Counted from the first letter of the stretch, positions 6,828 to 59,525 are shown. The stretch is 64,000 bases of DNA from Nitrospinaceae bacterium (GCA_965223665.1 OZ245011.1:1504001-1568000); one strand, 5' to 3'. The notes: a model not told the origin generated them from the sequence alone. Numbers and translations: made by a program.

Positions 6828-6856
6828 AATGTCCGCTTTTGGCCGTTAGTGGTATA
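6828..6856 (+). repeat. Repeat family A palindrome (degenerate right arm)
   Basis: AATGTCCGCTTTTGGCCGTTAGTGGTATA just upstream of the GGCT gene. Confidence 0.7.
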
Positions 6857-6888
6857 AAGTTTTCGAGTGAACTGTTGGAGGAAGAATA

Positions 6889-7383
6889 TTGCTCTATTTT
6901 TCGTATGGTTCCAATATGTCTGTCAAAAGACTTCACCAACGAATTTCCTCGGCGAAGAGAGTTGCTGGCGCTGTGCTTTCCAATCATGAATTAAAGTTTC
7001 ATAAAAAAAGCTTTAAGGATGGCTCAGGAAAATGTGATATTGCCGAAACGCCTAATCCGGATAAGAGGGTTTTTGGTGTGATTTTCGACATCGATGTTTC
7101 TGCAAAATTAAAATTAGACCGGATCGAGGGATTGGGTAACGGGTATGAAGAAAAATTGGTAGAAGTAAAATCCATGGAAGGAAATTTTTTGGAAGCCGTT
7201 ACATACTATGCCACCCATATTGACTCCAGTTTAAAACCTTACTCCTGGTATAAGGAGCACGTAATGAGAGGAGCCAAAGAAAACAATTTTCCCGAGGAAT
7301 ACATTCAAAATATTATTGCTGTAAAAACGATTGAAGATCCACAGCCGCAACGCCATGCGGATGAAATGGCAATTTATTTTTAA
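6889..7383 (+). CDS. Gamma-glutamylcyclotransferase (AIG2-like) family protein
   Basis: YFSYGSNM N-terminal motif, LDRIEG, GY; SD GGAGGA upstream of TTG. Confidence 0.88.
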   Translation: MLYFSYGSNMSVKRLHQRISSAKRVAGAVLSNHELKFHKKSFKDGSGKCDIAETPNPDKRVFGVIFDIDVSAKLKLDRIEGLGNGYEEKLVEVKSMEGNFLEAVTYYATHIDSSLKPYSWYKEHVMRGAKENNFPEEYIQNIIAVKTIEDPQPQRHADEMAIYF

Positions 7384-7453
7384 CTGACTATAAGGGAGCA
7401 CATCTACCTCCCTCTGCAGTTTCTTCTAAAGGCAATCTTTACTTCGGGAAATT

Positions 7454-7517
7454 TTCTGTGGATTCCGCATTAACACAAACTCATCGATAATTCATTTTGT
7501 CCGCGGGCGCTGGCCCG
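7454..7517 (+). repeat. Repeat family B copy 1
   Basis: TTCTGTGGATTCCGCATTAACACAAACTCATCGATAA...CCGCGGGCGCTGGCCCG; similar to 13978-14048 and 17741-17809. Confidence 0.75.
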
Positions 7518-7652
7518 CTATCTCCGCGGCCCGTGGTAAAACCTCCTTGCCGGATTTGATTAAAAATCCGGTTTTAGGTATAAGGGGTTTATTAGCGATC
7601 CCAGGCGGACCTGAACCATAACTTTAATTTATTAATCAACCGACACAAAACA

Positions 7653-7877
7653 ATGAGCGAACAAAATTTAAATATTTCCTTAACCCAAGATGAAGCCCTG
7701 GTTTTCTATGAAATGATCTCCCGGTTTTCTGGATCGGAAAATTTACCGATTGAGCATCAGGCCGAACTCATAACCTTATGGAACTTAAAGAGCAACCTTG
7801 AAAAAGAATTAAGCGATTCATTAAAATCCAATTATGATGAATCCCTTCAGGCAGCCCGCGATAACATGATGAAGTAA
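7653..7877 (+). CDS. Small hypothetical protein (74 aa)
   Basis: Clean ATG ORF, helical protein-like sequence (LTQDEALVFYEMISRF...LQAARD). Confidence 0.7.
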   Translation: MSEQNLNISLTQDEALVFYEMISRFSGSENLPIEHQAELITLWNLKSNLEKELSDSLKSNYDESLQAARDNMMK

Positions 7878-7947
7878 CAACGGAAAAATTCTTTCAGGTT
7901 ACGGTTCCCAAAACCAAACACCCACCCCTGCCCGAATGGGTAATATA

Positions 7948-8044
7948 ATACTGGCTACTCTTTTCCCCAGCGAGTGGAAATCACACATCCAAAAAAGCCT
8001 TCCTTATTATCAGTACCTGGACAGTGAAGAACGAAAACGTTAGC
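7948..8044 (+). pseudogene. Decayed copy of the 5' part of the M90 peptidase gene (11875-11971)
   Basis: TTCCCCAGCGAGTGG..ACATCCAAAAAAGCCTTCCTTATTAT shared with 11890-11937; no start codon. Confidence 0.85.
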
Positions 8045-8047
8045 CGG

Positions 8048-8079
8048 AAAACCCGAGGGGGGAAAACCCCGCGGGTTTT
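8048..8079 (-). terminator. Intrinsic terminator downstream of OsmC-like gene
   Basis: AAAACCCG...CGGGTTTT stem-loop. Confidence 0.6.
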
Positions 8080-8103
8080 ACAGGAATGGTTCCACCACAT
8101 GAA

Positions 8104-10416: not shown

Positions 10417-10445
10417 AAGGTCCACTATCGGTCGAAAGTGGACAC
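10417..10445 (+). repeat. Repeat family A palindrome with compensatory stem change
   Basis: GTCCACT-ATCGGTCGAA-AGTGGAC, 15 bp after the methyltransferase stop. Confidence 0.75.
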
Positions 10446-10584
10446 CCATTTAAATTAAAAAACAAACTTTTCTCAGAGTCACACCATCCACAACAGAAGT
10501 GTCCTTGATTAAGAAAGATTGAGAAGTAGAAACGGCCAGCCTGTTTGTATTGACCTCAACGCGACGACTCAAACTGTTTTGCAA

Positions 10585-11726: not shown

Positions 11727-11740
11727 TATAGATCGTTTCC

Positions 11741-11796
11741 AAGTCCGCTAATGATATTGCCATCTCCTTTCAGGATGATAGAATCCAAAGTGGAAA
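11741..11796 (+). repeat. Repeat family A, long degenerate form
   Basis: AAGTCCGCTA...GAATCCAAAGTGGAAA between GNAT and M90 peptidase genes. Confidence 0.5.
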
Positions 11797-11838
11797 AGTT
11801 ATATAATTGTTAAAAAGCATCGATAAAGGTTAATTATT

Positions 11839-13965: not shown

Positions 13966-13977
13966 ACAGTGAAAAGA

Positions 13978-16286: not shown

Positions 16287-16680
16287 TTATACCCTACACT
16301 TGAACCAAATTGATTTTAGTATTGGAAAAAGAAGAACTTTCTCCAATGGAATTGGTGAGGCAGGTCGCCGTGCCGTATCGATCCAACCGCATGACGGCAT
16401 TGGGGCTGGCCTCTGTCCACAGTCAGGCCCTCCATGAATAGTTTCGTTATCAATCTTTATATCCCGTGCCCCGTAGGCCCAGCGGCCAGATCCCTTCCAG
16501 GTAGGTCGCGGAAATAAGTTTGACTCGGCTCTATATTTCCATCCGAGTTGTTTCACATCCTGGCTATTGATCAGGATTCCATTCACATGGCTCCAGGATT
16601 GGGAATGGGTTCTGGAGTTTCCTCCGGCAATGGATTTGTAGGCAATTAATGAAAGTGGAAATTGATCATCCTGATCCTGC
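16287..16680 (-). pseudogene. Decayed 3' fragment of a TtrA-like molybdopterin oxidoreductase (homologous to 61021-61520)
   Basis: WAYGARDIKIDNETI and long nucleotide matches to 61021-61520; frameshifts and a ~100-bp deletion. Confidence 0.9.
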
Positions 16681-17809: not shown

Positions 17810-18275
17810 TGAATGGGAATCACCCTGGCCCTCTTAAGAAAAGAGGAAATACATGGGTCTTTTTTTAATCCTTTGTATTTTGTTCTCTACCCGAGATTAT
17901 TCCAAAGTCTCTCCCATAATGCAGATGAACCCTTTCGGTGTTATTCACCCTGTTAAAGGGTCCGATTGTTTTTACCGCCTTTACCGTGTTGACAGAAAAT
18001 TATGGGTTAAGTTCTGCCTTGAGGCCATTAACCTATAGGATAAAACTAATTCTAAAAGACCATTGATCGAGTAACTCCATTGCTCGCATTTGATTTTACG
18101 AAGTACTTATTTCAAAAAACCTAACCATTTATTTTTAGAATCGTTTTTGGTGTAAATACATCATTAAATAGTACTTATTTGCTGAATAGATACCGAAGTT
18201 TTAGAAAATCAGGTGTGAACTTATAAAAATATGGAAAACTCAAATTTTAACCCGGGTATTTGCAGAAAATAGACT

Positions 18276-19976
18276 ATGACCATCCCTATTCTAATTCTTC
18301 TCTTTCCTCTCTTAGCCGGGATTTTTATTTGGTCCTTTGGCAACCGAATGTTGGCTCACGTGGCCAAAATCGGAGTCCTTGCCACCTCGATTGCCTGCCT
18401 TCTTTCCGTTTGGACCCTTTATTATGTCAGCACTGAGGGAACGGTCCAATTTGATTTTTGGACGTTAGGCTCAGAAGGTGCACCCATTTTTAAGATTGGT
18501 ATGATGGTCGATCGGCTCACCGCAGTGATGATGTTGTTGATCACAAGTGTGAGCGTCGTCATTCATACATATTCAGTCCGGTATCTGGAAGGCGATCCGG
18601 GTTACGCCCGATTTTTTGCTTTATTAAGCTTTATGACCTTTGTCATCCTTTCTGTTGTTTCCAGTCCAAATTTATTCATGCTGTTTATATTCTGGCAGCT
18701 ATTGAGTTTGACACTTTATCTTATACTTAACTTTAACTACACGCATCCAGACTCTTGTCGGAATGCGTTTAAAACTTTTTTTGTCCACCGTGTCGGAGAC
18801 GTCAGTTTTCTTTGCGGGTTGTTTCTTGCCTACAAATATTTCGGGACTTTTGAGTTCACAGAACTGTTTGACGCGGCCGCCAAAACCCCTCACATGATTT
18901 CCTTATTACCAGGAACCATTATTGAGGTCAGCGTTATTTCGTTGATTGGTTTCCTTATCTTTATTGGGGCAATGGCCAAGTCCGCGCAGTTCCCGTTACA
19001 CGTGTGGCTGCCGGACACCATGGATTCACCCACTCCCGTTTCGGCTCTAATGCATGCGGGAATTATCAACGCCGGCGGATTTTTACTGAATCGTCTGGCT
19101 CCCTTTTATGTTCAATCGTCGGGTTTGCTCCATATTGTATTTTTAATTGGTGTTGCCACGGTTCTGCTGGGAGCCGCCATGATGCTGGCGCAAAATGACA
19201 TTAAGAAAACCCTCGGGTTTTCTACGATGGGGCAAATGGGATACATGATTATGGAATGCGGGCTCGGAGCATTTGCACTGGCCATATTCCATTTAATTGC
19301 CCACGGCTTTTTCAAAGCCACTTTGTTTTTAGGGGCCGGAACCGGCATTCACGCCGCGCGGGAAGAACCCCACCGCCCTCATTCGGAGGAACATCCTGTC
19401 GAGGAGACACAGCAATCCCACAAGTTAACCTGGGTAACGGGTTTAGTGGTCACGCTAATGATGCCGCTGGTGATTCTAATGATCGCCCACGACATGCTGG
19501 ATATCCATTTGGAAGAATCTCATGGAGAAGTGATTTTCCTCTTTTTCAGTTGGGTAACCGCATCTCAGGTGATGTTCAGTTTATATCGTCTTCAGGCCGT
19601 GGATTCCTGGAAAGTGGCTCTCACCATGATTGGCGCCCTGTTTTTCATCGGATTCATTTATCTGTGGGTAGGTGAGAAATTCACGCATTTCCTTTACCCC
19701 GGACCGGGAGTCGCCGACAGTTTCTTTGTAGCGGCGGCGTTTAATCCCACGGTTTTTGATTTCATAATAATACTATCCACTATAGGTATTATATTTGGAT
19801 GGTTTGTCATCTATACAAATACGAAGGGACAAAAAGTGTTTATCACAGGTTGGATCATTTCCCTACGTAAACAATTATATATTCTATTAATCAATCGGTT
19901 TTATGTAGACCGAATTTATATTCGATGGAGCAAAAGCATTATGAGACTGGCACAAAAAGTCGCCATTCGTTTCTAA
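18276..19976 (+). CDS. dabB: DabB / NuoL-like membrane subunit of DAB inorganic-carbon transporter
   Basis: GAMAKSAQFPLHVWLPDTMDSPTPVSALMHAG, STMGQMGYM, HLIAHGFFKA; same operon as DUF2309. Confidence 0.88.
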   Translation: MTIPILILLFPLLAGIFIWSFGNRMLAHVAKIGVLATSIACLLSVWTLYYVSTEGTVQFDFWTLGSEGAPIFKIGMMVDRLTAVMMLLITSVSVVIHTYSVRYLEGDPGYARFFALLSFMTFVILSVVSSPNLFMLFIFWQLLSLTLYLILNFNYTHPDSCRNAFKTFFVHRVGDVSFLCGLFLAYKYFGTFEFTELFDAAAKTPHMISLLPGTIIEVSVISLIGFLIFIGAMAKSAQFPLHVWLPDTMDSPTPVSALMHAGIINAGGFLLNRLAPFYVQSSGLLHIVFLIGVATVLLGAAMMLAQNDIKKTLGFSTMGQMGYMIMECGLGAFALAIFHLIAHGFFKATLFLGAGTGIHAAREEPHRPHSEEHPVEETQQSHKLTWVTGLVVTLMMPLVILMIAHDMLDIHLEESHGEVIFLFFSWVTASQVMFSLYRLQAVDSWKVALTMIGALFFIGFIYLWVGEKFTHFLYPGPGVADSFFVAAAFNPTVFDFIIILSTIGIIFGWFVIYTNTKGQKVFITGWIISLRKQLYILLINRFYVDRIYIRWSKSIMRLAQKVAIRF

Positions 19977-19982
19977 AATGCT

Positions 19983-20231: not shown

Positions 20232-20250
20232 AATGTTATAGGTAGGTGTG

Positions 20251-21480: not shown

Positions 21481-21524
21481 AGCCTCTTTGTTAAATTTTT
21501 TCAGGAGTTCGGCAGGATAAAATC

Positions 21525-24773: not shown

Positions 24774-24803
24774 AATAATCTTGTTGAGGAGTATAGAGAA
24801 ATC

Positions 24804-25130: not shown

Positions 25131-25282
25131 CCGGTGCGCCGCGCTTTGAAGCGCACCCTTCAAACTTCCCTCTTCCAGTCCCGGACTGGACTGCGTGCCT
25201 CTGTCCCGAGAATTAATTTACCATTATCTGTTATGGTGCAAAACTCCTGGAAGCTTTTCTATAGTCATATTGGCTATAGAAT

Positions 25283-29047: not shown

Positions 29048-29165
29048 TTAATGCCCCATAAATTCATAGGGTGAATCCAATACCCTTTCCGGCATACACT
29101 ATTTTCCCAAGTGGGTTGACTCCGCTTAGTTATACCACAATTGCATGTCCGCTTATGTCGGATTC
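29048..29165 (-). pseudogene. Internally deleted copy of the 36965-37495 unit (3' end + promoter + repeat A)
   Basis: TTAATGCCCCATAAATTCATAGGGTGAATCCA..ACCCTTTCCG (=36965ff) joined to AAGTGG.TTGACTCCG.TTAGTTATACCA (=37434ff), then ATGTCCGCTT. Confidence 0.85.
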
Positions 29166-29322
29166 CCGTCTATAACTCACTCCTGAAACATTCAAGATTT
29201 TGGGTCAACTCTGGAACCGTTTTTGGAGGCGGTCCGTGGTTCCGTTTTCAGGAATTTTTACTGCCAAACCGGTATCTAAATATATAGAGGGTAAGTTGTT
29301 ACTCTATTAAAAGGAGATGGTT

Positions 29323-32651: not shown

Positions 32652-32683
32652 AATACCCGCGATTCGACCCAAAGCGGATATTT
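32652..32683 (+). repeat. Repeat family A palindrome
   Basis: AAATACCCGCGATTCGACCCAAAGCGGATATTT. Confidence 0.8.
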
Positions 32684-34442: not shown

Positions 34443-34472
34443 GTAAGCAAACGCGCGGGTTTTGGGGATCCG

Positions 34473-34499
34473 TGTCTGCTTACGACCCCAAGCGAACAA
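34473..34499 (+). repeat. Repeat family A palindrome
   Basis: TGTCTGCTT-ACGACCCC-AAGCGAACA. Confidence 0.75.
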
Positions 34500-34576
34500 T
34501 CAACAAAAAATAGCTTCACAAAAACTGACGAGTGATCATGGTTTTCATCGAAAATAATAAAATTTGGAGTGAAAGC

Positions 34577-35038: not shown

Positions 35039-35043
35039 CTAAG

Positions 35044-35210
35044 ATGTCCGCTTTACCCGATCACATTCTTGGTCATTAATGCCCCATAAATTCATAGGGT
35101 GAATCCATTACCCTTTCCGTTGCAGTTACTTTTCCCGTCCGGGCCTCTATCTTTAATGGAAATTTTTTTCCCGGATTTTTTACAGAAACAAAAACTCCCA
35201 CTTTTCAGTT
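35044..35210 (-). pseudogene. Repeat A half-site plus near-identical copy of the 3' end of gene 36965-37420
   Basis: ATGTCCGCTTTACCCGAT, then ~130 bp nearly identical to 36965-37095. Confidence 0.9.
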
Positions 35211-36242: not shown

Positions 36243-36926
36243 ATGAACATTCGCGCTTCCAAAAAACGCATTGCCCTTGCGTGGTATTTAGACTTTTTAC
36301 TTTTCATGGTTTTCTGGAGTCTACTCAATCATTTTCTATTTGCAGACAAAGACCTTCCTTTTTGGATGGCCTTAGTCACTTTCATTGTCATTGAATGGGT
36401 ATGCATTAAAATTTTTGGTTCCATCGGAATGCAATTTCTCAGCATTGATGAAAACCAACGGGTTGATGCCAATATCCAAAATAGAGAAAACTGGTTAACT
36501 ATATTTCTAGGAGTAATTTTAGTTCTTGATGGCACAAAAAGCCTTGTGCGTTGGATGGACTTCCCGGTCAATTGGCCATTTTTCGGAGCGCTTCCTGATC
36601 CAAAAACACAAATTGTAATAAATATTCTGGCTGGGTGCTGGTTTATCGCCACAGGTTATTTTTTCTTGAAACTGAGGCCGGAAAGCATTTGGCTGGGGTT
36701 TATTACTGTCATTTGCGTATTGGTTTCCTCAGTTCTTAGTTGGTCGTTATGGGATGAAACAGCGGCCAAAATGGTTGTTGCCCGAAGAGAGCTTCAAGGC
36801 TTACCGGTCAGAGAGGGTGAAATAGAGTTCTTTCAAGGTTTAATGCCGGAAGGTATAATTGTGGCCACAGTTATTTTTGGCCTGGGAATATTATTTTCAC
36901 GCAAAAGATTTAAAAAACTTCCCTAG
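36243..36926 (+). CDS. Membrane protein, RDD-like N-terminus
   Basis: KKRIALAWYLDFLL; multiple TM segments. Confidence 0.7.
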   Translation: MNIRASKKRIALAWYLDFLLFMVFWSLLNHFLFADKDLPFWMALVTFIVIEWVCIKIFGSIGMQFLSIDENQRVDANIQNRENWLTIFLGVILVLDGTKSLVRWMDFPVNWPFFGALPDPKTQIVINILAGCWFIATGYFFLKLRPESIWLGFITVICVLVSSVLSWSLWDETAAKMVVARRELQGLPVREGEIEFFQGLMPEGIIVATVIFGLGILFSRKRFKKLP

Positions 36927-36929
36927 CCC

Positions 36930-36950
36930 AATATTCGCTTTACGACCGAT
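36930..36950 (+). repeat. Repeat family A half-site (degenerate)
   Basis: AATATTCGCTTTACGACCGAT, equivalent to 35044-35061. Confidence 0.6.
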
Positions 36951-36964
36951 TTCATTCCATGTCC

Positions 36965-37420
36965 TTAATGCCCCATAAATTCATAGGGTGAATCCATTAC
37001 CCTTTCCGTTGCAGTTACTTTTCCCGCCCGGGCCTCTATCTTTAATGGAAATTTTTTTCCCGGATTTTTTACAGAAACTAAAGCTCCCACTTTTTCATTT
37101 TCTTTTAAATAGGGAATCGTAACATCGACGGGAGCGCTGCCTGGATCATTGATCCTCATCAATTCATAGTTTATGTATTTAACGGAATACAACTCTCCCG
37201 CATTGATAAATATTTTCAGGGAAATGTTTTCCAAATCCCGGTTTCCGTTATTCGTTATCCAGCAATTGAAAAAGTCTACGGGTTCGCCTTCCCGCAAAAC
37301 GGAGTTTGTATGGTGCATCACATACTGCAGGGAAAGACGCTCTTTAAACAGGCCCCAAATAATGATAAGTCCAGCGATCCCAAGCGCCACATATAAGAAA
37401 TTTAATATATAATCGGGCAT
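36965..37420 (-). CDS. Membrane-anchored hypothetical protein (Ig-like ITNNGNRDL motif)
   Basis: N-terminal TM, extended -10-like TGGTATAAC upstream. Confidence 0.75.
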   Translation of the reverse strand: MPDYILNFLYVALGIAGLIIIWGLFKERLSLQYVMHHTNSVLREGEPVDFFNCWITNNGNRDLENISLKIFINAGELYSVKYINYELMRINDPGSAPVDVTIPYLKENEKVGALVSVKNPGKKFPLKIEARAGKVTATERVMDSPYEFMGH

Positions 37421-37470
37421 AAACGGCTAACCTAAGTGGATTGACTCCGGTTAGTTATACCATAAATGCC

Positions 37471-37495
37471 TGTCCAATTTTGGCCAAAAACGACT
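37471..37495 (+). repeat. Repeat family A (degenerate)
   Basis: TGTCCAATTTTGGCCAAAAACGACT; same position relative to the promoter as ATGTCCGCTT at 29145. Confidence 0.55.
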
Positions 37496-37541
37496 TTTTT
37501 CCTGGGTAAGGCACCTTGTGTGGCGGAAGGCTCAATGCATC

Positions 37542-50298: not shown

Positions 50299-50404
50299 AA
50301 ACGGCCTCCTCCGTTTGTATTTATTACTGGGAGCAATTTAAAACTTTTCATTCAATGGAGAATAACACGAGACGCAGGCGGAATAAAATCGCCTTGATCT
50401 TAAA

Positions 50405-50639
50405 GAGATCTTTGCATAACAATGGATTTAGAAAAAAACACAACCAATGTAAAATAGGAAACCCATGTTTGCCCTCTTTCCCAACCTGGCGGTTGAGGCG
50501 AAAAGGATTTCCAAAAGTCGATGGATTTAAGAAATCGATAGAACCCATCGAAGATGAAATGCTGGTGGCGGGGCCTTTCCCGCGGTCAGGGGGATTCACC
50601 TTCAGGGGTTTTCAAGTTTTATGACTACGGAAAGGTCTC
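50405..50639. mobile_element. MITE family C copy (235 bp)
   Basis: Ends GAGATCTTTGCATAAC / ACTACGGAAAGGTCTC; interior 50465-50610 similar to 55977-56120. Confidence 0.75.
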
Positions 50640-50711
50640 GTTTTTAAACTGGGGAATCATTTGGCAGGAACTTTGGGAAGGGGAAGGGCAAGGGCCATCA
50701 CGATAAAGAAA

Positions 50712-50845
50712 CAGACCTCCTGAAAAATTAGTAACGTCAACCTTATTCTATTGATCTCGCCTCATGGCGTTAACTTCATTTTTCAAATAGGTTATAATCT
50801 AAAACCAAGTTATCAACTGTTCGCTATCGACCCAAAGCGGACATT
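50712..50845 (+). repeat. Promoter-like block + repeat family A site, copy 1
   Basis: Near-identical to 54655-54789; contains TATAAT and TGTTCGCTATCGACCCAAAGCGGACATT. Confidence 0.85.
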
Positions 50846-50907
50846 TATAATTCCAGTTTGCGAGTTAACCTTTAAGACATGGGGGAAATTAAACTTTAAA
50901 AAATTAA

Positions 50908-51420
50908 TCAATAATCTGCGTACGATTTGTTAGCAAATTCAGGGTCGAGTTTCACTGCTGCCGCATAGTCCTTTTTGGAGGAATCGGACTCGCCAATTTT
51001 ATAATAACAAAGCCCACGAAAGAAATAGGAACCAGCTCGTTTCCTATCGCTACTGTACTCAATGGCTTTTGTGAAGTCAGCAATACCCTTATCATACTCA
51101 CACTTCATGCCATACACCAAACCTCGATGATGGTAAGCATCGTCGAACTGAGAGTTCCTTTGGATTGCATCATTATACTCTGCGAGAGCTCTATCCAATT
51201 GACCTTTTTCTCTAAAGACATGCCCAAGAACATTGTAGGGGCCAGGATGCGAAGGGTCCAATTTTATACTCCTTTCCAGGTCAATGATTGCATTGACAAA
51301 GTCTCTTTTCACCCAATAGGCTGATCCCCGAATCAAATAATCGCTGGAGCTTCGTGGTTCTAGATTCTTGATAATAGCATCAAAATTTACTTTCTCATTA
51401 GAGGGGCCACTTGAAGGCAT
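50908..51420 (-). CDS. TPR-repeat protein
   Basis: AYHHRGLVY...AIADF-type repeats, KLDP. Confidence 0.88.
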   Translation of the reverse strand: MPSSGPSNEKVNFDAIIKNLEPRSSSDYLIRGSAYWVKRDFVNAIIDLERSIKLDPSHPGPYNVLGHVFREKGQLDRALAEYNDAIQRNSQFDDAYHHRGLVYGMKCEYDKGIADFTKAIEYSSDRKRAGSYFFRGLCYYKIGESDSSKKDYAAAVKLDPEFANKSYADY

Positions 51421-51672
51421 AAATTTTCTCCTAACATATAAGGTCGCTTAAATTTAAAGAATCTAACAACTCTTTTAGGGTCCTAATTTTGAATTGCATT
51501 AGTAAGTAAAAATCATTTTTCTTTTAAAAACAGCTTAAATCGGTTGTTGTTTACATGGAAGGGCTGTACGCAACTATTGATGCGAACTCCGCCTACTTTT
51601 GTGCGCGGGAAAACTACTAAATAGCTGCATTACCCTCTGCCGCTAAGTTTTAATTGTTCTTAAAATTTTAAT

Positions 51673-52638
51673 TTAGGTTGAAAAGAAATTTTCCTTGATG
51701 TAAGGATCGATTTCTGGCTTTTCATCTACTTTTTTAAAGCTTCCTTTGTTAGCATTCCACCAATTTTTCCAATCCTTAGTGTTTTCCACATGCCCCTCAC
51801 CAAGTATTTTCTTTAAAGAGACACTAGCTAAATATTGAACAACATCATATTTGTCTTCCAAAGCGTTAATTAATGGTTCCACAGCGGCAATGCTATTTAT
51901 TCGACCAAGAACGGAGGCAACTGTACAGCGAATCTTATCTGAGCTATGATCTGAAAGCGCTGCAATCAATGGCTTTAAGGCCGAATGCCCAAATTTTGTT
52001 AAAGAGTTTTCAGCACACCACCGTATATAGTCATCCTCTGCTTCTAAGACTTCTATCAAAGGATAGATCGAACGGATATCACCAATTTCGCCTAAGGCCC
52101 ACGCTGCTGCAGCGTGCTGATCAGCCCGAACAAACTTTGGTTTGTTGATATCCAACAAACTAAGTACCTTTATTAGTAAGTCAACAGCAAGTGGTTCCTT
52201 CTTTTCCCCCAATGCCAAAATTGCAGAATTACAAAGATCAGACGAGCCAAATTTATAAGAAATTTTCACCCACTTCATTAATGGTTGAATAACACGGTTG
52301 TCCTTAATCTTCCTTAAAGCATAAATGGCTCCGTGTGGGTAATAACCTTCTTCCTCGTTTTCGAGAGCACCAATAAAATCAGGTAGTAATTGACGTGCTC
52401 CCTCTGTCTCACCCCAATTTGGACAAACTGCTTCTAATACTTCCTTTGCGCCAAAATATTCGTTCCCATCCTCTTCTTTGAGTAAAAGAATTAGCGTCTG
52501 TAGCAATTCTGGATCACTTATCTTCCCTAAAGATTTTAATGACTCACAAGCACCTCTACGGGCAGACCAGTCACCATGAAGTAAGCGTTCTATTTGTTCT
52601 TTTTGCTTCTTTCTATTGTTGAATAAGTTTGAGAACAT
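51673..52638 (-). CDS. HEAT/PBS-lyase repeat protein
   Basis: AAWALGEIGD.RSIYPLIEVL, AVEPLINALED. Confidence 0.88.
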   Translation of the reverse strand: MFSNLFNNRKKQKEQIERLLHGDWSARRGACESLKSLGKISDPELLQTLILLLKEEDGNEYFGAKEVLEAVCPNWGETEGARQLLPDFIGALENEEEGYYPHGAIYALRKIKDNRVIQPLMKWVKISYKFGSSDLCNSAILALGEKKEPLAVDLLIKVLSLLDINKPKFVRADQHAAAAWALGEIGDIRSIYPLIEVLEAEDDYIRWCAENSLTKFGHSALKPLIAALSDHSSDKIRCTVASVLGRINSIAAVEPLINALEDKYDVVQYLASVSLKKILGEGHVENTKDWKNWWNANKGSFKKVDEKPEIDPYIKENFFST

Positions 52639-52738
52639 TGCCCCCCCTCTTTAGCTTGCAATATACACTAATATGGGGGATTTTGAAGGTGGAATATTTG
52701 TGGGGAATTTTGTTGGCAAAGGATTCTTTAAGAAAATA

Positions 52739-52782
52739 TGACCTGCCCCTGTAAGTTGTACCAAATCTTAAGTTAGAGTTTC
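52739..52782. mobile_element. Probable IS terminal remnant (IS3-family-like end)
   Basis: TGACCTGCCCCTGTAAGTTGTACCA...AAGTTAGAG resembles IS3-type TG... termini (from memory); no transposase. Confidence 0.4.
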
Positions 52783-52908
52783 TGTCTTGGGTTTAACGGC
52801 ATCCGGAGCCATAGGTACTGGGTAAAGGCATCGTTCGAGGGCAAATACATTGGAACTCAACAAGCATCCAAAGATAATTACAAAAAGATAAATAACAAGT
52901 CTTTTCAT
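52768..52908 (-). pseudogene. Truncated secreted-protein gene (46 codons)
   Basis: MKRLVIYLFVIIFGCLLSSNVFA signal peptide; frame ends inside the IS-like end. Confidence 0.5.
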
Positions 52909-53040
52909 ACAAAGCCTTCACATTGACATTTTTATTTCATTTTCTACCCTCTTAGGTTAATATTGTTGGCCAAAACAGGCAATTGCTTTCATTGTGGGGA
53001 GCACAGACCAAAAGAGTACCTACCTTTTAAAATTTTCAAA

Positions 53041-53087
53041 GCGGAATGTCTGCTTCTGACCGAAAGCGACCCAAAGCGGACATTCGC
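53041..53087 (+). repeat. Repeat family A palindrome (best-preserved, double-loop form)
   Basis: GCGGAATGTCTGCTTCTGACCGAAAGCGACCCAAAGCGGACATTCGC. Confidence 0.85.
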
Positions 53088-53150
53088 GGTAGTTGCATAG
53101 GGCCGAAGGAAGACCTACAGAAGAGCGTTGGGCGGAATAGAAAATAGGAT

Positions 53151-53223
53151 GCCGATGTAATTCGGTTGGTAGAGCAACTGGTTTGTAATCAGTAGGTCGG
53201 GGGTTTGATTCCTCTCACCGGCT
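53151..53223 (+). tRNA. tRNA-Thr(UGU), probably a pseudogene
   Basis: Cloverleaf with anticodon TGT, but A-C mismatches in acceptor and D stems and T-loop TTTGATT; no CCA. Confidence 0.8.
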
Positions 53224-53232
53224 TTAAAAATA

Positions 53233-53259
53233 AAAGGGCCAGGGATACCCTGGCCCTTT
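53233..53259. terminator. Intrinsic terminator after tRNA
   Basis: AAAGGGCCAGGG-ATA-CCCTGGCCCTTT perfect stem + T-rich tail. Confidence 0.8.
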
Positions 53260-53375
53260 CTTTAGTTTCAGGTGAATGCAGGCCATACGCGCCTTATACG
53301 CAGTATGGTCTTGCGCTGACAATGGACTGGGCATCGGGTCAGCGCAAGACAATTCCCCAGCAAAATCACCCCGCA

Positions 53376-54224
53376 TTAATGTTCACCGATGTATTTGACG
53401 TGAGGTTCGTCCCGTTCTTCCCTGAGTGCCATGGTAAGTTCCGGCACTTCGGTAAGCCTTTCGTTGATGACGGTCAGCAGGGTTTTGGCCTGGGAAAGGA
53501 ACGCGTCTTTCTCTGCAGGGCCGACTTTACGGTGATACAAGTCTTCGTAACCATTAAGCAACGTCTTGGTTTTGCGGATCAATCCTTCGACTGTCTGGTA
53601 GGAAACCTTGCGTGTGGAAGCTTTTTCAGCTTTCGCTTCGTAATCAAACCAGATATCGATATCCTTTGATACCCGCCCCATTTTGATCCAATATTCCCTG
53701 GCACCTTCTTTGCCTCCACGCTCCTTGATGATGTCGGCAATCATCCTCGCAACCGGGGATTTAGGGATACCGTTCGCGGTCTCGCAAAGGTGGCGCACTG
53801 CCTGGAACACCTTGTTGAGATTACTGTCAATCTGCATACCTTTGTTGGAGAAGGTCCGTACCTCCGGTGACCGTTCGAAGGCGTGCCACATGCCTCCGTC
53901 CCGTTGCAGGAGTAACCTTTTCTCATCCAAAGCACGGAATGTCTGGTGGCAGGATTCCCGATCTTTCACCTTGCCCTGCGGGGCAGAGGCTTCTGTCAGG
54001 AGGGTCTTCCTAAAAGATTCATCCAGAGAAATTTTACTGGGAGTGGTATCTGCTTTAGCCATAAAAGCTTCGCGGGTCATTTCCTTTTTAGAAGTCCGGA
54101 CCCAGGTTTTTTCTTTTTCTGGCATTATATAAGGGGACATTTTGACGGGTCCTTTCAAGGGTTCCGCACCACCCAATGTCACCAATCCAAACAAGAACAA
54201 AACGAAAAAAATCGCCCTTTTCAT
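53376..54224 (-). CDS. Secreted helical hypothetical protein
   Basis: Signal peptide MKRAIFFVLFLFG; 282 aa; SD-like AAGGA. Confidence 0.8.
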   Translation of the reverse strand: MKRAIFFVLFLFGLVTLGGAEPLKGPVKMSPYIMPEKEKTWVRTSKKEMTREAFMAKADTTPSKISLDESFRKTLLTEASAPQGKVKDRESCHQTFRALDEKRLLLQRDGGMWHAFERSPEVRTFSNKGMQIDSNLNKVFQAVRHLCETANGIPKSPVARMIADIIKERGGKEGAREYWIKMGRVSKDIDIWFDYEAKAEKASTRKVSYQTVEGLIRKTKTLLNGYEDLYHRKVGPAEKDAFLSQAKTLLTVINERLTEVPELTMALREERDEPHVKYIGEH

Positions 54225-54410
54225 AATTCCTTATTCCTTTCTCTAATAGAGTTGGTTTATGAAACCTTATCACATTTCCAACCTGTTTTCACCCTCCACA
54301 GGCCCCATATTGCCCTGCCAAGGTGCTTACGCCATCCAGTGGTCATTGGAAAGTTCTTCGCGGCGATTCCTGGATCAATAAGCCTTTCTTTGTGCGAACC
54401 GCTAATCGCG

Positions 54411-54437
54411 GTAGGTTCGATCCTACGACTCGGCTCA
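54411..54437 (+). other. tRNA 3'-end-like fragment (possible att scar)
   Basis: GTAGG-TTCGAT-CCTAC T-arm followed by CTCGGCTCA. Confidence 0.35.
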
Positions 54438-54487
54438 ACGCCAGCGGTTTCCGGTGCGTCCAGTAAGAGTTACCCTTTGCTCTTTTA

Positions 54488-54509
54488 CGCTTTTGGCCGA
54501 TAGCGACAT
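54488..54509 (+). repeat. Repeat family A (degenerate)
   Basis: CGCTTTTGGCCGATAGCGACAT. Confidence 0.6.
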
Positions 54510-54654
54510 CCACCCTCATGCAAACTGGACTCTCCCCATATGGAATTATGATTGGAAATCTGTTGGAGACAAAGTTACTATTACCAAAGCTCTCAAGGCA
54601 AAAGGCTTCGCAAGATTATCGGTATCAGAGCAGTAAAGACCGCCCCAAGAAAAA

Positions 54655-54789
54655 AACTGATCTCCAAAAAAATCACTGACCTCACCCCTATTCTATTGAT
54701 CTTGCCTCATGGCGTTAACTTCATTTTTCAAATAGGTTATAATTTAAAACCAGTTATCAACTGTTCACTGTCGACCCAAAGCGGACGTT
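54655..54789 (+). repeat. Promoter-like block + repeat family A site, copy 2
   Basis: Near-identical to 50712-50845; ends TGTTCACTGTCGACCCAAAGCGGACGTT. Confidence 0.85.
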
Positions 54790-54819
54790 TTGGACGAGGC
54801 GACAATAAATGGAAGTTTA

Positions 54820-55467
54820 ATGAGACTTATTAATATTGATGAAGAAGCACCAGAAGAGTTCTATATTTTTGTAGATCGTTCAAATTTTATAACTGCACAC
54901 AACTTTAGACTCACTAAAAAATTTAGTTCTGGTGCGGCAAATTCATGCAGCATTGATTCAAATTTTGAGAAAAAATATAAAGAAGGTAGTGCCAATTACT
55001 TACCATATAAACTGTGCGAAATAGATACTGTATCGCCGTCACTCTATTTTTTGAGCGCGATAAAAAATTACCGAGTAGAATATGATGCCGAAACTTACCG
55101 AAAACATAACCACCCACTATATCCATCTCGATTATCTGCCATATATGCATTCGGCAGCATGGAAATGTGTAAAAAAGTTTCTGAAAAGTATCATTGGTCA
55201 TTAGACAATATCCACAAATTTCGTTTAAGAAACTGGCCTTTAACCAGGATAGCCAAAGTTAATATGGAGCATGTTTCTTTAGCCCGTCTTGCTTATAAAA
55301 ATTCAGCCATGCTAGAAGAAAGCATTGAATACTTATGGGCTAATTATTGGAGAGGTTCCGGAGAAATTGTTTTTGAATTACCATCAACTAATTTTGAACG
55401 TAAGAAATTCAATTCCGGCGTTATTTGGGAATATCTTATTGAAGGTGTTGTTGAATGCATTGAGTAA
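54820..55467 (+). CDS. DUF2441-like protein (possible ADP-ribosyltransferase-like fold)
   Basis: ETYR...P.YPSRLSAIYAF, YWRG, WEYLIEG.V. Confidence 0.6.
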   Translation: MRLINIDEEAPEEFYIFVDRSNFITAHNFRLTKKFSSGAANSCSIDSNFEKKYKEGSANYLPYKLCEIDTVSPSLYFLSAIKNYRVEYDAETYRKHNHPLYPSRLSAIYAFGSMEMCKKVSEKYHWSLDNIHKFRLRNWPLTRIAKVNMEHVSLARLAYKNSAMLEESIEYLWANYWRGSGEIVFELPSTNFERKKFNSGVIWEYLIEGVVECIE

Positions 55468-55554
55468 AAAGCATAATCGTTATAATAAGTCTCCAATAGA
55501 TTATTAGTTTTTGAGCCAAATTATTAAAATTTGAATTTGTTAAGAAACCCTGAA

Positions 55555-55914
55555 ATGAAACACAAGCCCTCTCAGGATCGAACTGTCTACTCCACCGAAC
55601 ATGGTAAAATGTGTCCCGGCTGTGGCAATCCCGTGAAACAATGCAACTGTCGCAAACAGTCATCGCCCCCCGGTGATGGAAACGTACGCGTCTCCCGTCA
55701 GACCAAGGGCAGAAAAGGAAAAGGGGTCACGTTGATTCAAGGACTCAATATGGATGCGGCGACTCTATCAGCGACGTGCAAGAAGCTCAAGACGATGTTC
55801 GGCACCGGCGGGACGGTCAAAGACGGAGTCATCGAGATCCAGGGCGATCATATTGAGCGCATCCTGGATTATTTGAAGGAACAAGGCGTAAAGGCCAAAC
55901 GGTCTGGCGGGTGA
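55555..55914 (+). CDS. yciH: SUI1/YciH translation initiation factor homolog
   Basis: VYSTEHG, RQTKGRKGKGVTLI.GL, GTGGTVKDGVIEIQGDH. Confidence 0.95.
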   Translation: MKHKPSQDRTVYSTEHGKMCPGCGNPVKQCNCRKQSSPPGDGNVRVSRQTKGRKGKGVTLIQGLNMDAATLSATCKKLKTMFGTGGTVKDGVIEIQGDHIERILDYLKEQGVKAKRSGG

Positions 55915-55915
55915 A

Positions 55916-56330
55916 GTGGCTTTTGCATAAGAGGAAATTTTAAATAAAACACAAATAATATTAAAAAACGAAATTGATGTTTGCCCTCTTTCCCAACCTA
56001 GCGGTTGAAGCAAAAAGGATTTCCAAAAGTCGATGGATTTAAGAAATCGATGGAACCCATCGAAGATGAAATGTTGGTGGCGGGGTCTTCCCCGTGGTCA
56101 GGGGGATTCACCTTCAGGGATTTTATAAATAAGGAAAAATCCCCCCAGCCCGCAGCGTCACGCTGCACCCGGAATAATTTTTCGTCAGGTTTGTCCAAAT
56201 ATCATTTGTCCACAAACTTTTGAGAATCCTTATTGCATCCAATCGCAGATTGGGGAAAGGGGGAGCGCATGGGTCGCCACTTTAAGTTTATTGTATTTTT
56301 CTTAATAATCTTTCGTTATGCAAAGGTCGC
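55916..56330. mobile_element. MITE family C copy (415 bp) with long imperfect inverted arms
   Basis: GGCTTTTGCATAAG / GTTATGCAAAGGTCGC ends; inner arms 55977-56036 vs 56209-56270. Confidence 0.75.
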
Positions 56331-56413
56331 TTGGTAAAGAAATGAGATTGCCTATCCAAAACTCTTAACCCATTCAACCTGCCTGGGGACTTACCTATAG
56401 ACTACGGATTGAA

Positions 56414-57040
56414 TCACTGGAAATGTAGCGTACAGGATTGGTTTCGGCACACGGCGGATGCGTTAAAGGGATCTACGGGCAAACAGCTTGTGAGGGTCTC
56501 AAAATGTCGTGCCACCGCCTCGTAGCATTGTTGTGAAGTCTTGTTGAGAGCCCTGGAAGTCCCGCAGAAATTGTATGCCGCCACGCAATCCTGATCCTGT
56601 TGACATGCCAGGAATTCTTCAGGCGTCCGCGTGATGATTTTATAAACAATATTCGTAGGCATATCTTTCACCGATCCATACCCGCACGCGGGCAGATGGG
56701 TCTGCATTTGAGGTTTGGGCGAGGCAGGTTTTTTCGGTTTGGGTTTCGGAGCCGTTTGCGTCTGCTGCCTTTCGTGCAACACCTTCAGCATATCGCTCAT
56801 TTTCTTTTCAACCGCAGGCTCATTGTTTTCTCGGGCCCACGCCTGTAATTCCTTGCAGGCTCGGATCGCCTTGGCATCCATTCCTTCCTCAAAATAAAAA
56901 TGTGCCTGCCGCCACAGGTTTTTAGCGAGGGACGACGAAAGTTTGGGAGCGTCATCCGCCAGGGCTTGCGAACTTTCTCCTGCAATGTTCAGCAACATAA
57001 CCACCAGAACCAATACTAAGTATTTTGAAATAGGTTTCAT
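56414..57040 (-). CDS. Secreted protein with Pro/Lys linker and Cys-rich C-terminal domain
   Basis: Signal peptide; CQQDQDCV...C...C...C...CRNQSC. Confidence 0.8.
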   Translation of the reverse strand: MKPISKYLVLVLVVMLLNIAGESSQALADDAPKLSSSLAKNLWRQAHFYFEEGMDAKAIRACKELQAWARENNEPAVEKKMSDMLKVLHERQQTQTAPKPKPKKPASPKPQMQTHLPACGYGSVKDMPTNIVYKIITRTPEEFLACQQDQDCVAAYNFCGTSRALNKTSQQCYEAVARHFETLTSCLPVDPFNASAVCRNQSCTLHFQ

Positions 57041-57173
57041 GCTTTAGGTTTCCTTTATTAATCTCAATAACTTCTATATATTTTCAATATATGGACACCG
57101 AACCTATCCATTAATACCATGAAAAATACCCTGCTCAAAATTTTGTTGTAAACCATAGCTACTGATTTTTCCC

Positions 57174-57225
57174 AATATCCGCTTTTGGCGGGCAATCCAT
57201 TTACTTTCGACTCAAATTTGATATT
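57174..57225 (+). repeat. Repeat family A long form, left flank of ankyrin gene
   Basis: AATATCCGCTTTTGGCGGGCAATCCATTTACTTTCGACTCAAATTTGATATT. Confidence 0.8.
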
Positions 57226-57291
57226 TCAATTTAAGTCCTTTTCCGGCATAATAGAAGTCTTCCCTGATATTCAAAAATTAGACAACTGCTT

Positions 57292-58575
57292 ATGAAATCC
57301 ACCTTCGTTATTCGCTCAAATATTTCAGCCATTCTGATTGCAGTCATTGTCGGGATTTTAATTCCTTCCATTTCAACTCAAGCGTCCCCTGAAAAACTGG
57401 TAACCAAGATTAATAATATAGCCTTACTGAAGGCTGCATTTAGGGGCGACGAGGCAAACGTAAAAACTCTGCTGGCAAGGGGCGCCAATGTAAATTTTCA
57501 AAAAAAAGATGATGGGGTGACTGCTTTAATTGTGGCGTCCGAGAAGGGACATTTGTCTGTTGTAAAAAGACTGTTGGCTAATGGAGCCGATGTCAACCTT
57601 CCTGCTTATAATGGGTTTTCAGCGTTGACTCAGGCAAGTTTTAAAGGCCACGAATCTGTAGTACTAGAACTTTTAGAGAAAGGAGCGAAGGTCAATCAAC
57701 AGGCAGACAATGGTGCGACCTCCTTGATTCTGGCATCCGAGAAAGGACATTTTTCCGCTGTAAAGGCCCTGCTTAATCAAGGGGCAAAAGTGGACCTTCA
57801 AGCTAATGATGGAGCAACTGCATTATATGTCGCTTCTCAAAATGGCTATGAACTAATAGCGAAGAAATTACTCGAAAAGAACGCTGATATCAATATCCCA
57901 ATCAAAAACGGAGGAATCCCTTTAATAGTAGCATCACTTTATGGCCATGAGCCAGTAGTGAAGTTGCTCCTGGAGAATAACGCCAAAGTAAATCATCAAG
58001 CTCAAAACGGCGAAACCGCGATATTTTTTGCATCTGAAAATGGACACGCTCAAATAGTGAAGGAATTGATTGCATACGGAGCAGACGTTGATCTAAAAAG
58101 GAAAGATGGAGGGACGGCGTTGATTTGGGCATCATTGAATGGGCACGATGTTGTAGTGAATACATTACTGGAAAATGGTGCCGAAGTTGATCTAACAGAT
58201 GAAGATGGTTCAACGGCCCTTTTAGGGGCGTCGTTACCTGGGCATGAGGCGGTAGTTAAAGCGCTATTGGCAAAAGGTGCTAATGTTAATCATCAAGATA
58301 ATATTGGCGAAACTGCTTTGCTCTGGGCGTCGGGTAATGGACATGAGCCAGTGATAAAAGCCTTACTTAATAAGGGAGCAGATGTTAATCACCAGAACAA
58401 AAAGGGCCAAACCGCTTTAATGGAAGCATCGCGGAGAGGACAGGTGGTGACGGTGCAGACATTGTTAGCAGCGGGCGCCGACGTCAATGCCAAAAACTCT
58501 AACGGAGAATCCGCTCTCAGTTTGGCGAAAACTAAAGCTATCGCCCAACTGCTAAAGGCGACAGGAGCAAAGTGA
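57292..58575 (+). CDS. Secreted ankyrin-repeat protein
   Basis: About 11 GxTAL..AS..GH..VV..LL..GAxVN repeats; signal peptide. Confidence 0.95.
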   Translation: MKSTFVIRSNISAILIAVIVGILIPSISTQASPEKLVTKINNIALLKAAFRGDEANVKTLLARGANVNFQKKDDGVTALIVASEKGHLSVVKRLLANGADVNLPAYNGFSALTQASFKGHESVVLELLEKGAKVNQQADNGATSLILASEKGHFSAVKALLNQGAKVDLQANDGATALYVASQNGYELIAKKLLEKNADINIPIKNGGIPLIVASLYGHEPVVKLLLENNAKVNHQAQNGETAIFFASENGHAQIVKELIAYGADVDLKRKDGGTALIWASLNGHDVVVNTLLENGAEVDLTDEDGSTALLGASLPGHEAVVKALLAKGANVNHQDNIGETALLWASGNGHEPVIKALLNKGADVNHQNKKGQTALMEASRRGQVVTVQTLLAAGADVNAKNSNGESALSLAKTKAIAQLLKATGAK

Positions 58576-58647
58576 TTCTTTTCCGAAATCCAGGCGGTTT
58601 ATATTGCTGACAACAGAGAAGAATAAAGGTTAGTGAATGGAAAAAAT

Positions 58648-58699
58648 AATTTCCGCTTTTGGCTGGCAACCCATTTACTTTCGACCCAAAGTGGACATT
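58648..58699 (+). repeat. Repeat family A long form, right flank of ankyrin gene
   Basis: AATTTCCGCTTTTGGCTGGCAACCCATTTACTTTCGACCCAAAGTGGACATT. Confidence 0.85.
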
Positions 58700-58710
58700 C
58701 CACCTAAGTG

Positions 58711-58739
58711 TTGCCAGTTGCTCCCGGCTTACATATAAT
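58711..58739 (+). promoter_or_regulatory. Sigma70 promoter, probably leaderless transcript
   Basis: TTGCCA-N17-TATAAT; ATG begins 8 nt after the -10 box. Confidence 0.7.
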
Positions 58740-58746
58740 TGCTGAT

Positions 58747-59460
58747 ATGGATAAAAAATACCAGGAACGTCGAAAAGAATTCGAAGCAAAGTTTAAGCCT
58801 GACAATCTCAAACCAGATGGGCGCAAGGAGTTGGTATCACCATCGGGCAACTTTCAATTAACCATTGATACCTACTCCAGAGGCGCTGACAAATGGGATT
58901 ACTCTCGAGGTCGTGTTCGGCGCACTGGGGACGACACCGTGCTGGCAGATATTAAGCGAAACGATGGTCGTTTCTTCCATTCCTGGGTTCAGCATTCCAA
59001 TGGCCATGAATATTTGATTTGCGGTGAAGATTATCAGGGCCAAACGGTGGTAAACCTAAACACAGGTCAGAGAAACGACTTCTTTCCCGAATCCGGGTAT
59101 ACCGGTGGAGGATTCATCTGGACCGGTGCCTTGCCATCTCCGGATTCAACCTTACTTGCCGTCGATGGTTGTTACTGGGCTCATCCCTACGAAGTAGTAT
59201 TTTTTGACTTCACGGAACCTGACTCACTGCCTTACAAAGAACTTTTTCGAGTAAGCGATCTCGATGAATGCGAGGGTTGGATCGACAACAATACTTTTCG
59301 GATGACGCAGGAAATTTATTCTCGAAAAGCTGACAAGGTTCCCTATGATGAGCTGTCCGAGAAAGAACAGAAAGAAATAGACGACAATGAAAACCTTGCT
59401 CTCTACGAGTACCCAGAAGTTCTCGTCACTCGGGAGCAGATACTGCAAGGTAAGGACTGA
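58747..59460 (+). CDS. Hypothetical protein
   Basis: SPSG, YLICGEDYQGQTV, SPDSTLLAVDGCYWAHPY. Confidence 0.8.
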   Translation: MDKKYQERRKEFEAKFKPDNLKPDGRKELVSPSGNFQLTIDTYSRGADKWDYSRGRVRRTGDDTVLADIKRNDGRFFHSWVQHSNGHEYLICGEDYQGQTVVNLNTGQRNDFFPESGYTGGGFIWTGALPSPDSTLLAVDGCYWAHPYEVVFFDFTEPDSLPYKELFRVSDLDECEGWIDNNTFRMTQEIYSRKADKVPYDELSEKEQKEIDDNENLALYEYPEVLVTREQILQGKD

Positions 59461-59525
59461 CCACTCCCGGCCGGATAGCAGACCCCTTTGTTTTCAAGAC
59501 AAGAGAGACATTACAAAATTCGATT

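Follow-up and report, generated by a model that had tools for sequence, protein, structure and literature searches.

Dyad-symmetric 30-bp repeats at the edges of gene modules in a Nitrospinaceae genome: candidate recombination sites of a non-integron cassette system

Results

A 30-bp oriented site recurs between gene modules

The 64,000-nt window analysed here (C1:1504001-1568000 of a Nitrospinaceae bacterium, the host genome, 4.35 Mb in 6 contigs) carries an imperfect palindromic repeat that an initial annotation had proposed to mark an integron-like gene-cassette system. Comparison across genomes showed that the basic unit of the repeat is a 30-bp site: inverted arms AATGTCCGC and GCGGACATT of 9 nt, often 12 nt, enclose a 12-nt middle; the central 6 nt of this middle are asymmetric and come in two types, A (TGGCCG) and B (CGACCC), both of which stand on one strand. 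Further centres occur in other bacteria: CCACCC in sphingomonads, and GTGCCA and TCGCTC in enteric plasmids. The 11-mer arm, with at most one mismatch, is present 14 times in the window against 1.35 expected, and none of 100 shuffles reached 14. One-mismatch matches to the 11-mer at 5033, 15959 and 54131 fall within open reading frames (ORFs), lack a partner arm and look coincidental.

Seventeen places had originally been listed as copies of the palindrome. On re-reading, seven proved complete, with two recognisable arms (10417, 32652, 34473, 50817, 53041, 54761 and 58648), and nine were decayed yet supported (6828, 11741, 29145, 35044, 36930, 37471, 54488, 57174 and 59458), a decayed copy being accepted on one good arm together with a TTGGCCG or CGACC(C) centre, or on paralogy or orthology; the place at 7594, with arm mismatches at 6 of 9 positions, was rejected. 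The copies are indeed oriented, intergenic and situated between unrelated one- and two-gene modules. All 10 half-sites in the window (18 nt, consisting of a 12-nt arm and the 6-nt centre, with at most 3 mismatches) share a single orientation, with TTGGCCG on the plus strand and the complement of CGACCC on the minus strand, and the same half-site scan confirmed that the TonB-icd block and the dab operon are free of copies.

In the left and middle parts of the window, an A-type site at 6828..6857 (+) combines a perfect left arm and a TTGGCCG centre with a right arm decayed at 4 of 9 positions. The complete 30-bp site at 10417..10446 (+) has the centre CGGTCG and a matching change in both arms (CCAC / GTGG), and folds at -6.2 kcal/mol (z -2.3). 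At 11740..11798 (+), a decayed composite with two mismatches in its left arm and four in a distant right arm stands where a GNAT block ends and an M90 block starts, both blocks being common to a genome of the same genus (G001). An A-like site at 29144..29173 (+; one mismatch in the left arm, right arm decayed) closes an internally deleted copy (29047-29157) of a unit that we term cassette E. B-type sites follow at 32652..32682 (+), where the centre is 13 nt long and contains CGACCC and the stop of a GNAT-cNMP gene lies 15 nt before, and at 34471..34500 (+; CGACCC), between a Kef-type gene and a 168-aa ORF. A left arm alone, with one mismatch, at 35043..35060 (+) heads a partial copy of the left part of cassette E (35057-35205, 94%). 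Cassette E itself (36913..37498, no strand assigned) comprises a B-like site at 36930 (centre ACGACC), a minus-strand 151-aa ORF and an A-like site at about 37470-37498 (centre TGGCCA).

The stretch 50816-59485 reads as five successive B..A units. A B-type site at 50816..50845 (+) has a perfect right arm and is preceded by a conserved spacer of ~120 nt (50690-50807); the same spacer precedes the B-type site at 54760..54789 (+). Between them lie a fused A+B composite at 53045..53084 (+; outer arms, TGACCG .. CGACCC), which folds at -11.9 kcal/mol (z -3.1), and an A-type site at 54482..54517 (+; centre TTTTGGCCGAT, arms decayed), at which a block shared with G001 ends. The composite is 66 nt upstream of a tRNA-Thr (TGT) gene (53151..53223, +), the sole Rfam/ARAGORN feature of the window, which sits inside one module. 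Two further fused A+B composites are found at 57174..57228 (+; right arm decayed, 85% identical to 58648-58702) and 58648..58699 (+; TTGGCTG .. CGACCC, one mismatch per outer arm), and the series ends with a decayed A-like site at 59456..59485 (+), whose orthologous position in G001 holds an A site that is intact and at which a shared EamA block starts. Promoter-like hexamer pairs lie ~20 nt upstream of two B sites (50770-50798 and 54715-54743, 10/12 each) and just past a composite site (58711-58739, 11/12).

Two site types follow a fixed order and may be recognised as double-stranded DNA

The TTGGCCG and CGACCC motifs had been described as the asymmetric loops of one hairpin; they are instead the centres of two site types, which elsewhere form separate 30-bp sites. 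Across 15 low-GC gammaproteobacterial loci, A was followed by B in 16 cases, 12 of these at a distance of 29-96 nt, and B by A in 19 cases, every one of them at least 437 nt apart, so that genes lie between B and A. An A-B spacer of 53 nt is itself conserved; by eye, it holds a hexamer pair similar to those noted in the window. The “long” palindromes of the window (53045, 57174 and 58648) are A-B junctions minus their inner arms, which explains the “two loops” of the earlier description.

Covariation between the arms was at the level of chance: 46 compensated double changes were counted over 193 sites chosen without selection on both arms, as against a mean of 45.8 and a maximum of 69 in 1000 shuffles. 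Only three of eight window copies folded better than their shuffles. The lack of covariation beyond chance and the small number of folding copies fit recognition of the site as double-stranded sequence, not as a hairpin. The sequence flanking the 30-mer was not conserved in the four arrays compared; no site was among the 15 terminator-like calls at 50-60 kb, and no T run follows the sites. At gathering scores Rfam returned only the tRNA in the window, and a 4.5-kb stretch with nine sites from a gammaproteobacterial genome (G044) gave no Rfam match at E up to 1.

Sites cluster in compositionally foreign DNA of the host and occur in several phyla

The host genome contains 36 half-sites, compared with 7 and 4 in two block shuffles. 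The intergenic placement claimed for the window holds genome-wide: 34 of the 36 are intergenic, though ORFs of at least 100 aa (greedy calls) cover ~85% of the genome, and the two inside ORFs are isolated matches at 295 kb and 1635 kb. Five clusters, all in compositionally foreign DNA, were found at C1 1.437-1.563 Mb (15 half-sites, of which 10 are in the window), C1 2.242-2.244 Mb (5) and C1 3.027-3.034 Mb (9), and on contigs C2 (2) and C4 (3). A loose two-arm pattern was uninformative in this genome (255 matches versus 217-262 in shuffles), and a second loose scan was likewise noisy. The window lies inside an 875-kb block (C1 ~1.40-2.275 Mb) of ~44% GC, as against ~36% elsewhere in the chromosome, which may represent either an acquired or integrated replicon of very large size or a chimera of the assembly; by marker genes the assembly is 98.6% complete and 0.88% contaminated.

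Of 41 genomes belonging to the order of the host, 35, from 13 of 14 genera, carried half-sites, with 0-2 matches per genome for a reversed-pattern control. Proteins encoded in the window are 75-86% identical to those of loci titled Nitrospinaceae. A scan of contigs from one genome per species for the exact 18-mer identified at least 116 stretches, with locus GC of 35-71%, in Alpha-, Beta- and Gammaproteobacteria, Nitrospinota and Nitrospirota; by a rough estimate, chance would account for fewer than 20 matches in this collection. Carriers identified by title include Sphingomonas, Sphingomicrobium, Caulobacter, Kiloniella, Micavibrio, Dyella, Noviluteimonas, Thiotrichales, Woeseiaceae, Pandoraea, Malikia and Comamonadaceae, as well as many Nitrospinaceae, one Nitrospirota metagenome-assembled genome (MAG) and one Aggregatilineales MAG. 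Among the 18-mer matches listed, 63 of 125 have a partner arm with at most 2 of 9 mismatches. A loose arm pattern was not above control in the GC-rich genomes G041, G042 and G045.

The site was also found in 103 plasmid records at 80-99% identity, mostly of Pantoea, Klebsiella and Sinorhizobium. In three enterobacterial plasmid loci (L181 and L182, ~3945-4001; L183, ~3972-4001), IS110-family elements lie inside the site, one of them behind the left arm's initial 3 nt and another, ISEsa2, in the centre; the site is thus a target of such elements. Nineteen stretches with the site came from viral contigs and a few of them look genuine; seven share one common phage context that resembles coding sequence, lack a partner arm and look fortuitous.

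Sites form arrays among varied accessory genes

In Dyella silvatica (L052), nine sites of uniform direction lie within 8 kb; the ORFs between them are mostly small and co-oriented, with two larger ORFs on the opposite strand, and six of the nine sites are ~50 nt or less past an ORF stop. A Thiotrichales locus (L090) likewise has nine sites in 8 kb, and a Sphingomonadales locus (L050) has 17 in 8 kb. The gene upstream of the site was co-oriented with it in 52 cases versus 16 among the matches listed, after 35 of 126 matches overlapping an ORF of at least 80 aa had been dropped. Gene families near sites are highly varied, the largest protein cluster being present in 9 of 116 loci among the matches listed; neighbours like those in the window recur elsewhere, namely GNAT, methyltransferase, GFA, SUI1, CBS and HxlR genes.

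Three of the five host clusters are in or beside integrase-bearing islands (integrase, AlpA and a primase-like protein), and the island genes separated by sites are anti-phage genes, among them Shedu, AbiJ, AbiV, TIR, DUF4238, PIF1 with trypsin, and restriction enzymes. The island cargo includes Dcm with EcoRII, and MvaI/BcnI genes, with sites between. The island backbone is present in three copies, 43-95% alike (C4 7752-13387; C6 13-6593; C1 3022324-3026105), in the order integrase, then proteins of 273, 100, ~821 (primase-like), 99, 236 and 101 aa, the C1 copy retaining the last four only. None of these host backbone proteins was found in any foreign site locus.

In several cases, homology between modules ends at sites

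A comparison of module ends with sites had been named beforehand as a check, and in several independent cases it came out in favour of the prediction: in other genomes and plasmids, homology stops inside or at sites, and modules of one gene each (GFA, fos, LysE, DUF2268) turn up repeatedly, in contexts unrelated to one another, in Pantoea and Klebsiella plasmids and in a gammaproteobacterial chromosome. A GFA module of 596 bp, including its two sites, in a phage-plasmid-like replicon of Klebsiella shares 98-99% identity with its counterpart in heat-resistance-locus plasmids, which comes after an IS110-family element at the end of the locus. At each of the two sites the identity runs no further than the outer edge, with differences at 2 of 9 and 3 of 12 outer-arm positions and none in the inner parts; among the matches listed in a search with this module, 20 of 40 hold this segment alone. 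Pantoea vagans pPV989-508 has two copies of the fos module, which share 96% identity over 672 bp, one site to the next. A 10-kb query matched 62 records of large Pantoea plasmids. The LysE module recurs by itself in plasmids from P. eucalypti, P. agglomerans, P. dispersa, P. vagans and Duffyella, and the DUF2268 module is found in five Klebsiella pneumoniae plasmids at 94%; for both, the ends of homology fall inside sites. Where pPant1 has one B-type site between a chemotaxis gene and the DUF2268 gene, pPV989-508 has 4.1 kb extra with fos, LysE, HTH and namA genes, and the right-hand break is 2 nt inside a site.

Duplicated modules on the G044 chromosome (884 bp, 100% identical; 507 bp, 98.8%) start at the junction of left arm and centre of a B site and stop at the outer edge of the next site. 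Cassette E is 87% identical in G001, in a different neighbourhood, with homology ending at most 17 nt from both sites, and each of its two partial copies in the window abuts a site. As a whole, the region is a reshuffled mosaic relative to G001, in blocks of 81-95% identity.

Other rearrangements were recorded alongside. The dab operon (DabA/DabB-like proteins and P-II; 18242-25142 of the window) is at ~3.08 Mb in G001, where the GNAT and CitMHS transporter genes are adjacent, so dab has moved or been inserted in the host genome. Contigs assembled from two runs of one sample join 50378 to 53133, skipping 2754 nt with TPR and HEAT genes; this joint, at a short direct repeat, is the G001 arrangement, indicating that a variant strain co-occurs. 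Run contigs also show a weak joint from 56127 into the composite site at 58673 (a single contig, whose shorter side has 25 letters) and a pair of low-depth joints that go back. “Empty-site” candidates in E. coli plasmids were truncated by other IS elements and uninformative.

The search for an enzyme

The window contains no candidate enzyme, in agreement with the initial annotation, which had placed a tyrosine recombinase or HUH transposase outside it. Of the HUH enzymes, Y1 transposase (PF01797) had no match in the host genome, in G041 or in the two site-richest genomes, G043 and G044, and matched in G042 (a fragment) and G045. The best match to IntI (TIGR02249) in the host genome scored 82.8 bits, compared with a cut-off of 265. 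Resolvase and IS110 transposase were likewise not found in the host genome; of 12 other site-bearing genomes, five have the IS110 family, whereas G044 lacks it.

Tyrosine recombinases are plentiful in G044 (~19), some of them near arrays. Pantoea plasmid integrases are 31-32% identical to the host integrase beside the 3.03-Mb array, that of the P. dispersa plasmid is unrelated, and no Pantoea plasmid integrase has sites beside it. The host chromosome has a canonical dif-like 28-mer at C1:720379 (minus), near the cumulative GC-skew maximum at 660 kb (minimum at 2.92 Mb); its arms are unlike those of the repeat, which makes the host Xer system an unlikely user of the sites.

Other repeats in the window

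Several further families of repeats, 60-190 nt long and of no relation to the palindrome, are also present: 50427-50612 and 55939-56124; 7449, 13973 and 17733; 17563 and 56137; and 43458 and 46690. These families have dozens of copies in G001 at 2.09-2.83 Mb, and some indel ends fall within them. The segments 16287-16679 and 61021-61521 pair the 3' end of a molybdopterin oxidoreductase gene with a fragment copy of it, 83-89% identical and 45 kb from the full gene. A tandem duplication of ~255 nt (19875-20387) gives two similar small ORFs, located between a Proton_antipo_M (DabB-like) gene and a 410-aa ORF upstream of DabA.

Discussion

The repeats are best explained as 30-bp dyad-symmetric sites at the edges of mobile modules, mostly decayed in the host genome; the window is a largely sedentary, eroding mosaic of such modules in the 875-kb foreign-looking block. 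On balance, we think that the sites probably are recombination sites of an undescribed cassette system that is not an integron: near-invariance across hosts, symmetry without covariation, an asymmetric centre and a position at module boundaries together fit the core site of a recombinase that acts on double-stranded DNA. The cassette-capture interpretation is supported in part, with respect to the sites, which are oriented, intergenic, placed at module edges and not attC; on the other side of the ledger, no enzyme was found and no circles or junction reads were seen. A wider claim appears possible to us rather than probable: that this is an integron-independent system spanning several phyla, with a near-invariant 30-bp double-stranded site and two heterospecific centres, whose modules are natural cassette-exchange units that carry genes for defence, resistance and metabolism between chromosomes, islands, plasmids and phage-plasmids, also in lineages, such as Alphaproteobacteria, from which integrons are not known. 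Our searches, which did not cover supplements, found no published description of the site: 11-mers matched unrelated primers only, 15- and 16-mers matched nothing, and keyword searches of the literature returned solely work on integrons, IS110 and dif modules.

A module runs from a B site through one or more genes to an A site, and adjacent modules meet at an A-spacer-B junction, which in the host genome has been reduced to the “long” palindromes. In the mechanism that we propose, a site-specific recombinase, probably of the tyrosine type and encoded outside the window, would bind the arms as a dimer on double-stranded DNA; the asymmetric centre of 6-12 bp gives the site its direction, and strand exchange would take place in or beside it. 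Modules could then be excised, put in at another site or swapped among replicons, presumably through circular intermediates. The differing centres may keep A and B from recombining with each other, such that B..A units would be exchanged and not lost.

Several observations weigh against a dedicated recombination system. No recombinase is linked to the sites: among 12 other site-bearing genomes, IntI exceeds its cut-off only in G041, and no sites lie beside that intI; the integrases adjacent to arrays are only 22-27% alike between genomes and form no common clade. With the loose arm pattern, G043 and G044 contain ~125 and ~109 copies (controls 2 and 7), and a chromosome carrying ~110-125 dispersed sites in direct repeat should lose essential DNA if a recombinase were active on them. 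In other bacteria, single sites also adjoin the core genes lepA, mutL, ligA, folD, lexA and pcm. In the comparison with G001, only 8 of 22 block ends lie at most 60 nt from a site, where roughly 5 would be expected, and a clear 2.75-kb indel uses an unrelated short direct repeat. Contigs of four runs from one study contained no excision or circle junction at a site, and 30 bp of identity could equally serve ordinary homologous exchange.

These points lend themselves in part to the main rival, which we regard as unlikely, if worth serious consideration: that the sites are extragenic palindromes resembling repetitive extragenic palindromes (REPs) or bacterial interspersed mosaic elements (BIMEs), acting on DNA topology, transcription ends or mRNA stability. 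Modules would then seem bounded only since sites occupy most gaps between accessory genes, and 30 bp of homology would allow occasional exchange. The high copy numbers of the two gammaproteobacterial genomes (~109 and ~125 versus controls of 7 and 2, G044 and G043 respectively), the copies beside core genes, the prevalence of a co-oriented upstream gene (52 versus 16 among the matches listed), the pairing of two types on 29- or 53-nt linkers in the fashion of BIMEs, and the IS110-family elements inside the site in enteric plasmids all suit this explanation. It does not account well for one sequence being shared across classes and phyla, for a host genome with only ~36 half-sites in five clusters of foreign DNA, for arms that do not covary and many copies that do not fold, or for module homology that ends at fixed positions in the site; moreover, no Y1 transposase of the REP-associated type (RAYT) is present in the host genome, G041, G043 or G044.

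Cassettes mobilised by a transposase acting in trans, of the mobile insertion cassette or MITE (miniature transposable element with inverted repeats) type, seem improbable. Under this explanation the outer arms would be terminal inverted repeats and a lone 30-bp site two ends joined back to back, and it is true that a module's two ends are inverted repeats over their outermost 9-12 nt and that duplicated units contain both flanking sites, complete at one end. However, identity in two duplicated modules starts at the junction of arm and centre and not at the outer end, target-site duplications are not visible by eye in the flanks, and DDE, IS110 and Y1 enzymes are absent or inconsistent across genomes; no transposase gene was found between such ends, a parent IS not having been searched for systematically. 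Least probable, and in our judgement very much so, is a regulatory module on mobile genes, in which A would end the transcript from upstream, the spacer would carry a promoter, and a conserved regulator would bind B, the next gene's operator or 5' stem. Promoter-like hexamers ~20 nt upstream of two B sites, and a similar pair seen by eye in the 53-nt spacer, are in keeping with such a module, whereas the sites at 50-60 kb are not terminator-like and have no Rfam match, no regulator was found, and the ending of module homology in sites would be left unexplained.

If the sites are recombination sites, they would represent a second large route by which single genes cross phyla between replicons, the genes seen moving including anti-phage systems, fosA-type genes and further small accessory genes; this route would take in plasmids of Enterobacterales, well studied as they are, in which it has seemingly escaped notice. 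The near-invariant 30-mer offers a search key for modules in genomes and metagenomes as well as a bait for the binding protein, and a recombinase with two natural heterospecific sites, should it exist, would be of practical interest. If the repeats prove to be REP-like instead, a palindrome shared across phyla without RAYT would be unusual in itself.

Among known systems, integrons provide one close point of reference for the arrangement of genes. Their attC sites are hairpins of ~55-140 nt in which outer and inner boxes pair, the core triplets are conserved and the middle varies. The present system resembles them in its arrays of small ORFs, for the most part co-oriented, with a single oriented site after each ORF and the boundary inside the site, in its varied accessory, defence and resistance cargo, in clusters without an integrase that recall CALIN elements (clusters of attC sites lacking an integrase), and in the insertion of IS110/IS1111-family elements into the site. 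It differs in that the site is 30 bp long, with flanks that are not conserved, arms that do not covary and no 55-140-nt attC architecture; in that IntI is missing from the host genome and from 11 of 12 other site-bearing genomes; in that sites are found in Alphaproteobacteria; and in its two site types in fixed order. The dif modules of Acinetobacter (pdif sites, used by XerC/XerD), as described, are similar in having modules of one or a few genes, two-arm sites of ~28-30 bp, shuffling on plasmids and targeting by IS elements. Successive sites of dif modules alternate in orientation. By comparison, the sites studied here are in direct orientation, have arms unlike the dif-like site of their host and two centres, and occur in several phyla and on chromosomes too.

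REP elements are as a rule specific to a lineage, at the level of a species or genus. The sites resemble REP/BIME-RAYT systems as short extragenic palindromes that lie mostly after genes, in two types with fixed linkers and at least 100 copies in some genomes, but they lack a RAYT in the host genome, cross phyla, cluster in foreign DNA and bound exchangeable modules. IS110/IS1111-family elements occupy both REPs and attC sites, according to one report (PMC11187229). With lox and FRT the sites would share inverted arms around a short asymmetric centre, and the A and B centres would correspond to the heterospecific spacers of engineered cassette exchange; unlike lox and FRT, the sites number many per genome instead of one or two, and their cognate recombinase was not found. 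Site-bounded gene cassettes are a known kind of element, and there is a substantial chance that those described here belong to a distinct and widespread system.

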